64,000 nt of DNA, taken from IMG/VR virus record IMGVR_UViG_3300008107_000010; one strand, given 5' to 3'. Shown here one piece after another: positions 19,725 to 32,697 of this stretch. This DNA comes from a virus (taxonomy: Duplodnaviria > Heunggongvirae > Uroviricota > Caudoviricetes). A model generated the notes under the pieces. The model was not told the origin of the DNA. It searched no databases and saw only the letters and a program-made list of their open reading frames with translations. The position numbers and the translations under genes are program-made. Positions within the stretch are counted from its first letter, which is position 1. The number at the start of each line of letters is the position of its first letter.

Positions 19725-20345
19725 TTAGTTTTCTTTTCTGCCTCCAACGGACTCAGCGATGAGTGATTTTCCACGACGGATACGGTTTTTAATAGTTTGT
19801 AACGGCAAGTTGTATTTAACTGCAAGGTCTTCATATTTGATTTTGTTAATCAAACGGTCAACTACGATTTCACGATAAATTGGTTTTAATTTCTCCATTG
19901 CACGAATACAATTATCATAACGGGCTTGAAGTTCGTTATCTTCTTCAAGAAAATCGATTTCAGTTTTAAAATCTAAATCATCAACAAGAGAACCAATAGT
20001 TTCAATCATAACGCTTCCGCCGTCATTAACTTCCATACCATATTCTTCAAGACGTGTTAATGATGTTTTCTTATTACGCTCATTGATATAACCAAGACAT
20101 TCGTTAAATGCAATTCGATATAACCAAGTCGTGATTTGATACTGTGGATCATACTGATCGATTTTGGTCCACATTTTAGTCAATGTATTAACTAAAATAT
20201 CATCTGCTGCTTCAGAATCTTTTACAATTTTAGAAATGTAAGATCTAAGACCTGGTTTAACTTTACGATACAATGCAGTGAAATCTGCTTCAGAACGAGT
20301 TTCTAGATAATTTTCGGTAAGTTCTCTGTAATTTGCTTTAGACAT
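19725..20345 (-). CDS. sigma-70 family (ECF-like) RNA polymerase sigma factor
   Basis: Region-2-like ADDILVNTLTKMW...YQITTWLYRIAFNECLGYINERNKK and region-4-like YEDLAVKYNLPLQTIKNRIRRGKSLI. Confidence 0.65.
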   Translation of the reverse strand: MSKANYRELTENYLETRSEADFTALYRKVKPGLRSYISKIVKDSEAADDILVNTLTKMWTKIDQYDPQYQITTWLYRIAFNECLGYINERNKKTSLTRLEEYGMEVNDGGSVMIETIGSLVDDLDFKTEIDFLEEDNELQARYDNCIRAMEKLKPIYREIVVDRLINKIKYEDLAVKYNLPLQTIKNRIRRGKSLIAESVGGRKEN

Positions 20346-20370
20346 ATATGATTTGTTTTAACGATTAATG

Positions 20371-20388
20371 ATATGTAAATATAAACAA
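20371..20388 (-). promoter_or_regulatory. early-type motif, copy 4
   Basis: atatgtaaatataaacaa, 25 nt upstream of the sigma factor ATG. Confidence 0.5.
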
Positions 20389-20431
20389 TTTTTCTCAAAT
20401 GGTAAAACTTTTTTCACTTTTTTTTAAAAAA

Positions 20432-26441: not shown

Positions 26442-26463
26442 TTTGTTATTGTTTTAATTAATG

Positions 26464-26481
26464 ATATGTAAATATAAACAA
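26464..26481 (-). promoter_or_regulatory. early-type motif, copy 6
   Basis: atatgtaaatataaacaa. Confidence 0.5.
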
Positions 26482-26524
26482 TTTTCTCTAAACGGTAAAA
26501 CTTTTTTCACTTTTTTTCAAAAAA

Positions 26525-26545
26525 GTTATTAACATAGTTATTAAC
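26525..26545. promoter_or_regulatory. two tandem GTTATTAAC palindromes overlapping the stop of the CCA-enzyme gene
   Basis: aaaaaagttattaacatagttattaac. Confidence 0.35.
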
Positions 26546-27281
26546 ATTTTTCGAATGTTGGTTTTAACCATAAACCTCGATCAAAAATCAGATCTAAAAA
26601 TCCTGGAATTGATTTAGAGTCAACTAAATGTAACAATCTTATTGTAGCTGGAGTATCATGCGCCATCATCTTAAAAACTTCTTCACGGATCCTCTCAGCA
26701 CTAACAGTAGTTCTTAACTTATCAAGAATGTCTTTTTGCATCATAGCCAACCAAATCTCATCAGAAATACTAAAGCCTTTGGTGATTTTAAACCTTAGAG
26801 CTCGCATAATACGAAGAGGATCGTCCATCATTGTTTGTTCAGCAGGTAGAGGAGTTCTTAAAATTCTTTTAGCTAAATCAGCTTGACCGCCAAATGGATC
26901 AATTAAATTTCCATGCTCATCTTCAGCAATCGCATTCAATGTAAAATCTCGACGTAAAAGGTCATCTTCAAGAGTTCCAAGTTCTAAGATTGGACGACGA
27001 GTTCCTTCTACATATCCAACTTCTTTACGAGCTAAAACAAAATCTGCAACCAAACCTTCATTTTCATGACCCTTTGGAAATTTAGCTCTAATTGTAAAAC
27101 AATCAGGTGTACTCAAAAAGATTGTAAATTCTTTATGAGTCAACCAATCTGACATAATTTGGAATCCTTCTTCTACAGTTCTGTCTAAATTATCTAAGAC
27201 AAATGTAAAATCAATATCTTTAGACTCTAATCCCATTAGAGCATCTCTTACGCAACCTCCGACTTTAAATATTTGTGGCAT
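26541..27281 (-). CDS. cca: minimal tRNA nucleotidyltransferase (CCA- or A-adding enzyme; Pol-beta/poly(A) polymerase head domain family)
   Basis: VGGCVRDALMG...KDIDF, DLLRRDFTLNAIA and GGQADL...RTP...DDPLRIMRALRF are class II CCA-adding enzyme head/neck motifs. Only 246 aa. Confidence 0.75.
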   Translation of the reverse strand: MPQIFKVGGCVRDALMGLESKDIDFTFVLDNLDRTVEEGFQIMSDWLTHKEFTIFLSTPDCFTIRAKFPKGHENEGLVADFVLARKEVGYVEGTRRPILELGTLEDDLLRRDFTLNAIAEDEHGNLIDPFGGQADLAKRILRTPLPAEQTMMDDPLRIMRALRFKITKGFSISDEIWLAMMQKDILDKLRTTVSAERIREEVFKMMAHDTPATIRLLHLVDSKSIPGFLDLIFDRGLWLKPTFEKC

Positions 27282-27282
27282 G

Positions 27283-27552
27283 TTATTTGTTTTTACGTTG
27301 TCCTAATTTACGGGTCTCATACTCAACAGTGACAGAAGTGACTTCAACTTCATTTTCAAAGTTATACTTATCAAAGGTTATGCGCCCTTCGAAGGTAGGT
27401 CTTTCTACACGTTCACCAGTACGAATGCGCTCGAATATAGTCTCATTAACAATCATTGTATCTCCTACTTTATATTTTACTGCTTGTCTTTCATATCCAG
27501 CAGATTCAAGGATTTCTTTCTTAACTATTAATTTAAATTCTTTGTGTGTCAT
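27283..27552 (-). CDS. hypothetical protein
   Basis: 89 aa, early-type motif 14 nt upstream. Confidence 0.3.
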   Translation of the reverse strand: MTHKEFKLIVKKEILESAGYERQAVKYKVGDTMIVNETIFERIRTGERVERPTFEGRITFDKYNFENEVEVTSVTVEYETRKLGQRKNK

Positions 27553-27584: not shown

Positions 27585-27642
27585 AAAACTCGACATAAAA
27601 AAATGTCGAGTTAATTATTTTCAAAAAAGTTATTAACAATTT

Positions 27643-28569
27643 TTACTTAATACCAATCATTGCGTTAGTTTTATCACCTAACATTGTTTCAGGTAGTTTA
27701 CCATTCCACTTATTAATCCACTCTAATTGAAGTAACATTGGCGTAATAGTTTTCTGTTTTAAACTATTTGCTTCAGCTTCAGCTTTTGCAGCAGTTAACA
27801 TTGCTTGGGCATTACCATTTGCAGTTGCAATTTTAATTTTAGCTTGTGCTTCAGCTGTTTTAACTTCATTTTCTGCTCGTAATGCTGACTGAACTGCATT
27901 ATTTTTAGCTTCAATAGATTTCTTAAATGTTTCAGGATAAATTAGGTTTGATGTGAATTGATTAATAATAAAACCTTCTTTAAGTAACTGACTTTCTAAT
28001 AATTTACGTACTTCTACTTCAAATACTGCACGATTTGAGATTAATTCATCGGCTGTATATTTATTAGTAGCTAGACGGAATGCATCATATACTGCGGTCT
28101 TTAAGAAACCTTCTTCAATTTCTGGCAAAGATCTACGGTATTTAGCAAAGATTGCAGGTACCTTTTCACGTTGAACCGAATAGTTCATAATTGGTGAAAC
28201 TTGGAATTCACTACCATCTTTAGAGTTTACAACAAATGAATTGTCAACATCTTCAGTTTTCTTATATTCTTTATGTTGAATATAAGTAGGGAATTCATAG
28301 ATTTTAGTTGTTACAGGATTATAGAATACCCATCCGGTACATTCTGTAACTCCATCAACTCCTTTACCACTTCCGTAAAGATTAACTTTTACACCGACAT
28401 GACCTGCGTCGATTCTTTCACATGACATAAACATTGTGATTAGCACAAAAAATGCTACTACTCCAATTGCGATTTTTCTAAACATACTTTTTAATTTTAA
28501 TTGTTGATTTAATTTTTCTTGTTTTTCTTTTTCTAGGCGTTCTTGCCACCAGTCTCTTTGTTCTGCCAT
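27643..28569 (-). CDS. SPFH/band-7 (prohibitin/HflK-like) membrane protein
   Basis: N-terminal TM segment, SPFH-like core, and a C-terminal Ala/Lys/Glu-rich coiled coil. Confidence 0.55.
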   Translation of the reverse strand: MAEQRDWWQERLEKEKQEKLNQQLKLKSMFRKIAIGVVAFFVLITMFMSCERIDAGHVGVKVNLYGSGKGVDGVTECTGWVFYNPVTTKIYEFPTYIQHKEYKKTEDVDNSFVVNSKDGSEFQVSPIMNYSVQREKVPAIFAKYRRSLPEIEEGFLKTAVYDAFRLATNKYTADELISNRAVFEVEVRKLLESQLLKEGFIINQFTSNLIYPETFKKSIEAKNNAVQSALRAENEVKTAEAQAKIKIATANGNAQAMLTAAKAEAEANSLKQKTITPMLLQLEWINKWNGKLPETMLGDKTNAMIGIK

Positions 28570-32607: not shown

Positions 32608-32697
32608 TGGCGGAGAGGGAGGGATTCGAACCCCCGTTACCCTTTCGAGTAAAACGGTTTTCAAGACCGCCGCGTTCAACCGCTCTGCCACCTCTCC
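32608..32697 (-). tRNA. tRNA-Ser (anticodon UGA), class II with long variable arm, CCA encoded
   Basis: Minus-strand sequence GGAGAGGTGGCAGAGCGGTTGAACGCGGCGGTCTTGAAAACCGTTTTACTCGAAAGGGTAACGGGGGTTCGAATCCCTCCCTCTCCGCCA. 7-bp acceptor stem, anticodon loop CUUGAAA, T-arm GGGGG-TTCGAAT-CCCTC, one A:C mismatch in the D-stem. Resembles E. coli tRNA-Ser(UGA). Confidence 0.8.

Follow-up and report, generated by a model that had tools for sequence, protein, structure and literature searches.

Described class II nucleotidyltransferases and the phage protein

[quoted passage not shown] The Asp and Arg of motif D act as a protein 'template' that reads the nucleobases of CTP and ATP (PMC3925840). A flexible loop and a basic/acidic motif lie between motifs A and B and are required for A addition; their roles are taken from PMC12013499 and PMC2910056. 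Bacterial A-adding (Aquifex aeolicus, 1VFG and 4WC2) and CC-adding (3WFP–3WFS) enzymes have the class II fold as well. These pairs divide the activity between two proteins but not the domains, and both are four-domain proteins of 390–525 aa. The A-adding enzyme supplies only A76, and its specificity has been ascribed to the neck and the C-terminal region. Poly(A) polymerase I (PcnB; 3AQK–3AQN) has a homologous head and neck, and it is also full length, with C-terminal RNA-binding regions.

CCA-adding enzymes have already been listed among the RNA-repair genes of jumbo phages (PMC7824862). Full-length phage enzymes (PHROG 2244; 394–469 aa) are known from Salmonella phage SSE121 (gp168), Mycobacterium phage Myrna (gp28), Caulobacter phage CcrBL9 and Vibrio phage F97. 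A short form, annotated as tRNA nucleotidyltransferase, occurs in two cultured phages, Microbacterium phage Cece (gp237, 244 aa) and Synechococcus phage B23 (gp209, 243 aa), both of PHROG 24229. This annotation is by homology only, and our literature search found no biochemical study of short or minimal phage CCA-adding enzymes. Small phages such as Providencia phage PS3 and Pseudomonas phage phiNV3 encode head-only nucleotidyltransferases (~180–220 aa; Klebsiella phage fHe-Kpn01 Gp22 type) with a Pol-beta-like head (PMC7291057).

The window analysed here is the whole 64,000-nucleotide stretch of a Caudoviricetes record (IMGVR_UViG_3300008107_000010). It encodes a 246-aa short class II nucleotidyltransferase (NTase) with a head, a neck and a C-terminal tail at 26541..27281 on the minus strand, as supported by the ORF list and translation, Pfam, PHROG, AlphaFold2 and Foldseek. 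The ORF starts with ATG and stops with TAA (26541-26543). An earlier note had placed a minimal CCA- or A-adding enzyme at this position without stating the strand; the ORF is genuine, the observation is confirmed and the match is far beyond chance. The window's capsid protein showed affinity with uncultured huge phages and Lak phages. No near-identical DNA was matched in the phage collection.

The NTase matched the PHROG 24229 'tRNA nucleotidyltransferase' profile from end to end (E=2.5e-57, residues 4-241 vs profile 6-241 of 245). It shared 50% identity with the Cece protein and 41% with the B23 protein over the full length, the same ~244-aa architecture and the same C-terminal W-L-x-P-T motif, present in Cece and degenerate in B23. 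Cece and B23 differ from the window phage in lineage and probable host (Actinomycetota and cyanobacteria, vs Bacteroidota for the window phage), and in the stretches examined their genes were not adjacent to RNA-repair genes. With the end-to-end match, the ~245-aa length and the basic W-L-x-P-T tail (the latter two signatures were derived in the present analysis), the NTase is a genuine member of a minimal family that is catalogued but uncharacterised, and not a new kind of system.

A retained catalytic core without body and tail

The whole profile of the Pfam PolyA_pol head (PF01743), the family proposed for checking in the earlier note, was matched with E=1e-18. The neck domain PF12627 gave E=9e-4, just below its cut-off. 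Against the solved CCA-adding enzymes E-values reached 2.4e-22, with 24–30% identity over ~235–248 aligned columns; no other group gave better E-values or bit scores. Family-profile scores were 130–150 bits for CCA-adding enzymes, 133 for the A-adding enzyme (aligned over query residues ~2–227), 104–107 for poly(A) polymerase and 82 for the CC-adding enzyme, which had the lowest score and aligned only from residue ~100. Among the NCBIfam models, those for CCA addition led with 108–112 bits, ahead of PcnB (77) and A-adding (55). The CCA equivalogs TIGR02692, NF009814 and NF008137 remained below their cut-offs of 290–451 bits and were matched only over the first ~200 of 396–466 profile positions. 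The A-adding model NF041569 (55 bits) has a cut-off of 1440, and the NTase is without its C-terminal region. The PHROG 2244 enzymes shared ~33% identity over residues 3–220 in a homologous head and neck, and they differ by 165–268 extra C-terminal residues.

The AlphaFold2 model had a mean pLDDT of 91.4. Its 46 best Foldseek matches in the PDB comprised only class II tRNA nucleotidyltransferases and poly(A) polymerase, and the top matches were CCA- or A-adding enzymes without exception. The best matches are thus to tRNA CCA-adding enzymes; kinship with antibiotic or other non-tRNA nucleotidyltransferases, named in the earlier note as the result that would refute it, was not what emerged. The head-only small-phage proteins were remote (TMq ~0.4, 12–16% identity) and lack a neck with the D-D-x-x-R template. 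A BFVD search retrieved full-length or remote head-only proteins and no viral structure with this architecture.

By sequence, the protein has the class II composition of a Pol-beta-type head with motif A, motifs B, C and E, and a neck with motif D of the form [E/D]-D-x-x-R. All features below are on the minus strand. The catalytic head spans residues 1–145 (26847..27281), with PF01743 over residues 5–142 and a mixed beta-sheet in the model. Motif A (27210..27260; coordinates verified, family alignment) reads G8-G-C-V-R-D13 and D22-I-D24-F and carries two metal-binding carboxylates in its G8-G9...D22-x-D24 pattern. In an alignment of 70 sequences with 37% mean identity, G8, G9, R12 and D22 were invariant and D24 was at least 90% conserved. 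The strand A79–R85 (27027..27047) aligned with the ...IDFVNLR... strand of the Arabidopsis enzyme, and its invariant D80 may be the third catalytic carboxylate.

The basic/acidic motif and flexible-loop region, R85–T103 (26973..27029), aligned to the B. stearothermophilus CCA-adding enzyme without deletion. Its length was similar to that of the aligned loop region, and loop sequences differ between enzymes (PMC2910056). Motif B, D106-D-L-L-R-R-D-F-T-L-N-A117 (26931..26966; coordinates verified), contains R110-R-D-F-T-L-N-A117 and showed D107, R111, D112 and N116 invariant. In motif C, I127-D-P-F-G-G-Q-A-D-L136 (26874..26903), D128 and G132 were invariant. The all-helical neck covers residues 146–224 (26610..26846), with PF12627 over residues 169–217 and helices over 147–224 in the model. 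Motif D (26790..26825) reads D153-D-P-L-R-I-M-R-A-L-R-F164, and its D154, R157, R160 and R163 were invariant. Motif E, S194-A-E-R-I-R-E-E-V-F-K204 (26670..26702), has an invariant E201 and an R197 conserved in at least 90%. The motifs quoted in the earlier note, GGCVRD...DIDF and RRDFTLNA among them, were all found in the translation, as was motif D.

The NTase ends ~25 residues past the neck, without the body and tail of the class II enzymes. These two domains anchor the tRNA in all characterised enzymes. Their absence, claimed from the sequence alone, held up: alignments to the 390–580-aa solved enzymes ended at query residue ~220, and family-profile alignments ended at profile positions 203–227 of 239. 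Foldseek aligned the query in full but under half of every target (TMq ~0.7, TMt 0.35–0.5). The likeness to split or minimal bacterial CCA/A-adding enzymes drawn in the same note failed, since the bacterial pairs split activity and the solved ones keep four domains.

We detected no body- or tail-like ORF elsewhere in the window. On the sequence evidence, a split gene with these domains nearby was rejected, as the C-terminal halves of four full-length phage enzymes gave only chance-level matches in the window; body and tail diverge fast, so this search is weak negative evidence. The small ORFs flanking the gene had no family and were not conserved. Truncation or pseudogene decay was ruled out by the conserved length and the invariant catalytic residues.

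Where body and tail would begin, the family alignment showed a family-specific C-terminal tail, P226–C246 (26544..26606), with the motif G-L-W-L-K-P-T. L239 and P241 were at least 90% conserved across the family. Of 120 short representatives, 78 had the strict pattern W-x-x-P-[TS], and most of the remainder had a relaxed form. The tail aligned to no solved enzyme, and pLDDT dropped to 69 and then 47 over it. From the alignments, this conserved basic W-L-x-P-T segment of ~20 residues appears to occupy the place of the missing domains, and in the model, where it is not confidently folded, it looks like a docking motif.

The short length is a property of the family. Of 121 close homologues, 104 have exactly 245 aa, and a length of 200–280 aa was found for 124 of the 150 nearest 50%-cluster representatives. 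When representatives at 50% identity are counted, 196 clusters of the short family fall at E<=1e-30; at 90% identity its clusters run into thousands. The best cellular matches were mostly from Bacteroidota. All 75 complete cellular relatives had 464–595 aa; therefore, the ~245-aa architecture looks restricted to viruses. Proteins of 478–2190 aa that embed the module were considered as fusions, and their only partners were GNAT and topoisomerase I domains without an RNA link; these are probably run-together gene calls.

tRNAs and RNA-repair genes around the NTase

The tRNA-Ser claimed elsewhere in the window was located as tRNA-Ser(UGA) at 32608..32697 on the minus strand by ARAGORN and Rfam. 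It is the only tRNA in the window, and it ends in ...CCTCTCC-G-CCA with a genomically encoded CCA. This tRNA is probably a member of the substrate class; as it already encodes CCA, at most repair would be needed for it, not synthesis.

The claimed RNA ligases are two genes of a four-gene set for RNA end healing and sealing (9484..13044, minus strand; Pfam and PHROG matches). The set consists of an RNA ligase with a PHA02142 OB domain (9484-10497), an Rnl1-like ligase (10658-11758), a P-loop kinase (11980-12393) and a metallophosphoesterase (12400-13044). In the window these genes are ~13.5 kb from the NTase. In the three related loci L004–L006, orthologues of three of them lie 1.7–4.3 kb downstream of the NTase orthologue, in the order tRNA array, NTase, 532-aa protein, Rnl1, PHROG 14949 protein, metallophosphoesterase, kinase. 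In L064 and L075 the NTase lies within or beside tRNA arrays. General adjacency to tRNA genes was rejected, because tRNA genes were within 10 kb in only 11 of 80 related loci.

Among the distinct tRNAs of NTase loci, 43 of 46 lacked an encoded CCA and 45 of 46 kept C74; thus C and A addition is needed. If these tRNAs are substrates, their need for C75 and A76 argues against an A-only activity. The link to RNA repair that the earlier note had drawn stands in the relatives, where the orthologue adjoins the Rnl1, metallophosphoesterase and kinase genes and an array of CCA-less tRNAs, and is weakened in the window by the encoded CCA of tRNA-Ser. A functional link between the repair set and the NTase may be inferred from this arrangement.

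Immediately upstream of the NTase, with a 1-nt gap, lies an 89-aa ORF (27283..27552, minus strand) without a family match, and the two genes are probably co-transcribed. Relatives do not conserve this ORF; in L004 the corresponding place is taken by a 76-aa ORF with no homology to it. Next to a Ro-like DUF2828 gene, at ~15140-15440, an intergenic stretch that is GC-rich and capped by a terminator was observed as an RNA candidate. Near that gene, no Y-RNA or other Rfam family scored above chance, and an action of the NTase on a candidate Y-RNA, proposed in the earlier note, is a conjecture.

Proposed function of the minimal enzyme

We consider it probable (about 0.6) that the NTase is a phage-specific, miniaturised class II tRNA nucleotidyltransferase that keeps the 3' ends of phage or damaged tRNAs intact. 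We infer catalytic activity, specificity for C and A, tRNA as the substrate and a means of holding it. Caution applies more than usual, since the canonical tRNA-binding domains are missing. The head would bind two metal ions through D22, D24 and D80, and D154 and R157 of the neck would read CTP and ATP by Watson-Crick-like contacts. The flexible loop and the basic/acidic motif may permit the switch from C to A. The tRNA 3' end would then be extended without a nucleic-acid template, so that C75-A76 or the full CCA is completed or restored. During infection, this may keep 3' ends intact on phage tRNAs, which are CCA-less in related phages, and on trimmed or cut tRNAs. The NTase would work beside the phage kinase, phosphoesterase and RNA-ligase set, which would mend internal breaks. 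The conserved C-terminal tail, self-association or a host factor are candidates for holding the substrate. Against this explanation stand the CCA already encoded by the only tRNA in the window, the distance of the repair genes in the window, the small number of related loci with tRNA genes near the NTase, the failure to find a body- or tail-like ORF or a conserved partner, and the host's presumed own CCA-adding enzyme.

A bolder version, to which we give a low probability, is a virus-only, self-sufficient minimal CCA-adding enzyme that would recognise the acceptor end through its W-L-x-P-T tail without elbow anchoring. It would serve counter-defence by rebuilding tRNA tails lost to host immune nucleases or infection-induced trimming, complementing the ligase repair of anticodon-loop breaks. 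Immune nucleases that cut tRNA CCA tails exist, such as Cas12a3 (PMC13594972).

A relaxed terminal transferase or a poly(A) or poly(C,A) polymerase, which without the elbow anchor would tail mRNAs or other RNAs and, e.g., mark host transcripts for decay, appears unlikely. The head and neck of poly(A) polymerase I are homologous and were matched at E=3e-10 with TMq 0.63–0.65, many family members carry the name 'poly(A) polymerase' from JGI, and the tRNA-anchoring domains are absent. Regions outside the core reportedly influence CCA versus poly(A) behaviour, as in the chimera work of Betat et al. in 2004. However, CCA-adding enzymes outscored poly(A) polymerases in every comparison, and the PcnB models were far below their cut-offs (TIGR01942, 77.5 vs 305.65 bits; NF008634, 37.7 vs 702). 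The flexible-loop and basic/acidic region, which appears to be retained, and the relatives' linkage to tRNA arrays and RNA-repair genes also argue against a polymerase.

It is rather improbable that the NTase repairs ends other than the acceptor end, refilling broken anticodon loops before ligation, or matures a structured phage RNA such as the GC-rich candidate by the DUF2828 gene. Without the elbow-measuring tail, the enzyme could be released from its specificity for the acceptor end, and the NTase adjoins Rnl1, phosphoesterase and kinase genes in L004–L006 and L009. Nucleotide restoration before ligation has been raised for other nucleotidyltransferases (PMC7824862). The candidate RNA itself is consistent with the second possibility, and 4 of 80 loci have a DUF2828 homologue no more than 10 kb away; no known RNA family was detected at the candidate. 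Most family members, however, are not beside ligase genes, and the NTase has the templating residues for C and A that CCA synthesis uses.

Equally improbable is a two-component enzyme, in which the short core would act with a separate RNA-binding subunit in place of body and tail, either a phage protein or a host protein recruited through the W-L-x-P-T tail, whose docking-motif look would suit this. The phage candidate is the 200-aa PHROG 14949 protein (14289..14891, minus strand), the protein most often encoded near the short NTase in related phages. Its homologue was within 10 kb in 60 of 80 loci (~17 of 31 lineages), always on the same strand and often as the next gene. In L004 its gene is part of the repair cluster, and in the window it is next to that cluster. 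Its model showed a ferredoxin-like domain of the ribosomal protein S6 kind, and the fold search was otherwise uninformative. The protein was found only in phages of Bacteroidota and is missing from Cece and B23; it is not an obligate partner, and with the upstream ORF unconserved we found no conserved partner of the NTase.

A host-directed toxin or take-over factor that, like MenT toxins, would block aminoacylation by extending tRNA 3' ends too far or wrongly is highly improbable. In its favour, a minimal nucleotidyltransferase acting on tRNA ends can be a toxin (MenT3; PMC11541572), the small nucleotidyltransferase-like phage protein fHe-Kpn01 Gp22 harms its host (PMC7291057), and without the anchor the enzyme might no longer stop after A76. 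The NTase is, however, much nearer to genuine CCA-adding enzymes than to the head-only phage proteins, and in relatives it is linked to repair genes and to phage tRNAs in need of CCA.

Should the NTase lack specificity for tRNA, the annotation of a large family in phage genomes would be wrong. If it is active alone, it would rank as the smallest class II CCA-adding enzyme in nature and as a natural experiment on how much an enzyme must retain to locate a tRNA end, add precisely C-C-A and then halt. The same question is usually approached through engineered truncations and chimeras. Restoration of the 3' tail would then join the known phage tRNA-repair toolkit of kinase/phosphatase and ligase, a timely addition now that tRNA CCA tails are known to be cut by immune systems.

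Identity and catalytic core of the short nucleotidyltransferase

The tRNA nucleotidyltransferase (NTase) gene lies at 26541-27281 on the minus strand, which carries every sizeable gene of the AT-rich window (33% G+C). The ORF translation runs from ATG to TAA and gives 246 aa. The earlier note had recognised a minimal CCA- or A-adding enzyme from three peptide motifs, and all three are present (residues 8-13 plus 22-25, 110-117, and 153-164). PolyA_pol (PF01743) matched over its full profile length (Pfam, E = 1e-18), and the neck domain PF12627 (E = 9e-4) fell just below the Pfam cut-off. PHROG 24229 ('tRNA nucleotidyltransferase', 245 positions) aligned end-to-end with E = 2.5e-57. The closest solved relatives were CCA-adding enzymes, from B. 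stearothermophilus (1MIV, E = 2.4e-22), plant, and yeast. PF01743, PHROG 24229, and the solved relatives therefore confirm the identification, to which only the minus-strand location is added. Judged by these profile comparisons, the family matches exceed chance.

The AlphaFold2 model, obtained with 37 homologues as input, was confident (mean pLDDT 91.4); its head (residues 1 to ~145) is built on a β-sheet, and its neck (~146-224) is helical. In the Foldseek search against the PDB, 46 of 46 best matches were class II tRNA nucleotidyltransferases or bacterial poly(A) polymerase, covering nearly the complete query (TMq ~0.7) and one third to half of the targets (TMt 0.35-0.5). Against solved enzymes, the alignment of a family profile of 70 diverse members (mean identity 37%) extended no further than positions 203-227 of its 239, so the NTase has a full catalytic core and ends about 25 residues past the neck. 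The putative metal ligands and motif A residues G8, G9, R12, D22, and D80 were invariant in the 70 sequences, and D24 of motif A was conserved in at least 90%. D107, R111, D112, and N116 of motif B, D128 and G132 of motif C, E201 of motif E, and the predicted nucleotide-reading residues D154 and R157, as well as R160 and R163, were also invariant. Between motifs A and B, the sequence could be aligned to the Bacillus enzyme's flexible-loop region with no deletion.

At the place of the body and tail domains, the family C-terminus carries G-L-W-L-K-P-T and then basic residues. Conservation reached at least 90% for L239 and P241 in the 70-sequence alignment; of 120 short representatives, 78 had the strict form W-x-x-P-[TS], and most others a relaxed form. 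Profile comparison with solved enzymes gave no match for this element, the sole poorly predicted part of the model.

Other readings keep appreciable weight because the anchoring domains are gone, which bears on how the NTase would hold its substrate and stop after A76. It could be a relaxed terminal transferase or a poly(A)-type polymerase, which we consider unlikely, as CCA-adding enzymes scored above poly(A) polymerases in every comparison.

Distribution of the short form

Public collections already contain a protein identical to the NTase, on contigs of up to 207,904 bp, which JGI calls 'tRNA nucleotidyltransferase/poly(A) polymerase'. The best-supported reading is close to the annotation already in databases. 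The length was exactly 245 aa in 104 of the 121 closest homologues and 200-280 aa in 124 of the 150 nearest 50%-identity cluster representatives, and 196 such clusters scored E ≤ 1e-30. Truncation was rejected, as the short length is conserved across homologues. The same architecture, annotated as tRNA nucleotidyltransferase, is found in gp237 of Microbacterium phage Cece (244 aa, 50% identity) and in gp209 of Synechococcus phage B23 (243 aa, 41% identity), both cultured. The short form is not the phage default, since SSE121 (417 aa), CcrBL9 (394 aa), Myrna (gp28, 397 aa), and Vibrio phage F97 (469 aa) encode ordinary full-length enzymes. The best 80 prokaryotic relatives (one genome per species), mostly Bacteroidota, showed at most 41% identity and covered just NTase residues ~3-212/240; all 75 complete ORFs among them were 464-595 aa. 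BFVD contained no close viral structure of this size. From length conservation, cultured carriers, and long cellular relatives, the short form is a distinct, abundant clade that looks virus-restricted.

The earlier note compared the NTase with 'split or minimal bacterial CCA/A-adding enzymes'; the comparison does not hold, because the bacterial pairs divide the activity between two full-length proteins. As the family is catalogued and has annotated counterparts in cultured phages, the NTase, a member of PHROG 24229, is not a new kind of system. The literature covered, which is incomplete and whose silence is not proof, contained neither biochemical work on the body/tail-less architecture, the apparent virus restriction, or the conserved tail nor any discussion of them.

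Five predicted proteins of 1433-2190 aa (P0218, P0224, P0243, P0247, and P0251) embed a short NTase module and a GNAT acetyltransferase, one of them also with eukaryotic-type topoisomerase I domains. Most likely these are gene calls run together in genomes with reassigned stop codons or in giant viruses.

Gene neighbourhood and tRNA ends

The NTase gene is preceded by an unconserved 89-aa ORF, only 1 nt away. Upstream of this pair, a terminator-like hairpin (27587-27612, minus strand; 10-bp stem and T run) separates it from an SPFH/Band-7 gene (27643-28569). We collected 80 further related viral loci (NTase identity 47-79%; 31 lineages at 80% identity), and in 16 of them an SPFH homologue lay within 10 kb. 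The window has three copies of a 34-nt motif, CCGTTT-N4-RAAATTGWTTATATTTACATATCA (15073-15106, 20369-20402, and 26462-26495, all minus strand), against 0 expected from 100 shuffles. A gene start follows each copy after ~20-25 nt, one of them that of a sigma-factor-like gene (19725-20345), and the motif is probably a phage-specific promoter; the copy at 26462-26495 comes after the NTase gene.

The tRNA and RNA ligases named as companions in the earlier note are real. tRNA-Ser(UGA) lies at 32608-32697 (minus strand), an RNA ligase with a PHA02142 OB domain at 9484-10497, an Rnl1-like ligase at 10658-11758, a small P-loop kinase at 11980-12393, and a metallophosphoesterase at 12400-13044. The repair genes are at least 13.5 kb from the NTase gene in the window. 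On the 273-kb contig L004 (NTase orthologue 74% identical), five tRNAs (Leu, Arg, Asp, Glu, and Met) and an odd tRNA-like gene are followed by a 76-aa ORF, the NTase, a 532-aa protein, an Rnl1-like ligase, the PHROG 14949 protein, a metallophosphoesterase, a 63-aa ORF, and a P-loop kinase. Four of these products, the ligase, the PHROG 14949 protein, the phosphoesterase, and the kinase, have orthologues in the window (42-69% identity), and the related loci L005 and L006 share this order. The 532-aa protein (L004 10791-12389), with no window counterpart, matched PHROG 1745 'DNA transfer protein' (E = 5e-152) and carries a weak metallophosphoesterase signature. The 96-nt tRNA-like gene upstream of the tRNA array (L004 6344-6439; L005 5855-5950) received no definite identity and a two-base 'anticodon' from ARAGORN; possible explanations are a tRNA with an intron or some other aberration, or a tRNA-like RNA.

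The PHROG 14949 protein (200 aa; 14289-14891, minus strand) is the most frequent NTase neighbour. In 60 of 80 loci (about 17 of 31 lineages), a same-strand homologue lay within 10 kb, often directly next to the NTase and on either side. Its model, of moderate confidence, includes a ferredoxin-like domain and gave only generic matches of that kind. The protein is very abundant in metagenomes (6,631 matches), and its gene lies inside or beside RNA-repair gene sets. Among cultured or named phages, only Bacteroidota phages carry it (Lak phages, Cellulophaga phi17:2, Tenacibaculum pT24, and one crAss-like phage). This distribution, with the nearest relatives of the capsid protein, supports a Bacteroidota host. 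As no homologue was found in Cece or B23, it was rejected as an obligate partner. No body- or tail-like sequence was detectable anywhere in the window. A two-component enzyme is improbable.

tRNA genes lay within 10 kb of the NTase in only 11 of 80 loci, so a general adjacency was rejected; a tRNA array surrounds the gene in L064, and one of 20 tRNAs adjoins it in L075. The window tRNA-Ser(UGA) ends in CCTCTCC-G-CCA, and since CCA is already encoded, it has no need of CCA synthesis. Its G-CCA, one base from CAA, compares with G-CAA, G-CAT, or G-CTA in the relatives' orthologues. None of the five L004 tRNAs encodes CCA. Across L004 and L009-L088 (46 distinct phage tRNAs), CCA was encoded in 3 and C74 in 45, and C-A-A was the commonest trailer. 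Judging from these gene ends, CCA-less phage tRNAs must gain at least C75 and A76 post-transcriptionally, which fits an enzyme adding both C and A. Because the sole Bacteroidales tRNA in the cellular loci (tRNA-Leu) also has an A-CAA trailer, the pattern may mirror host tRNA genes; the host would then also have a CCA-adding enzyme.

The NTase might instead act on other repair intermediates or a phage structured RNA, which we also regard as doubtful. An intergenic stretch at 15140-15440 (minus strand), just downstream of the DUF2828/DUF7788 'RNA-binding protein' (Ro-like) gene (15487-16926), is markedly GC-rich against the 33% of the genome, ends in a strong terminator hairpin, CCTGGCTTCGGCCAGG, and a T run, and looks like a structured non-coding RNA. 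Rfam matched no family to it above chance, and the backing for the Y-RNA suggested in the earlier note is limited to this stretch.

Proposed role

We propose, with a probability of about 0.6, that the NTase is a putative active, miniaturised class II enzyme that completes or restores CCA ends in infection, loosely allied with the end-healing and ligation genes. CCA-adding enzymes belong to the RNA-repair repertoire of jumbo phages, in agreement with this reading (PMC7824862). CRISPR effectors that cut tRNA CCA tails were recently described (PMC13594972) and would be a plausible selective reason for the gene. A MenT-like take-over factor is very improbable. The earlier identification and repair idea are retained; the split-enzyme, tRNA-Ser, and Y-RNA points are not. 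The annotation of the NTase is ordinary; the gene raises a clean, testable enzymological question.
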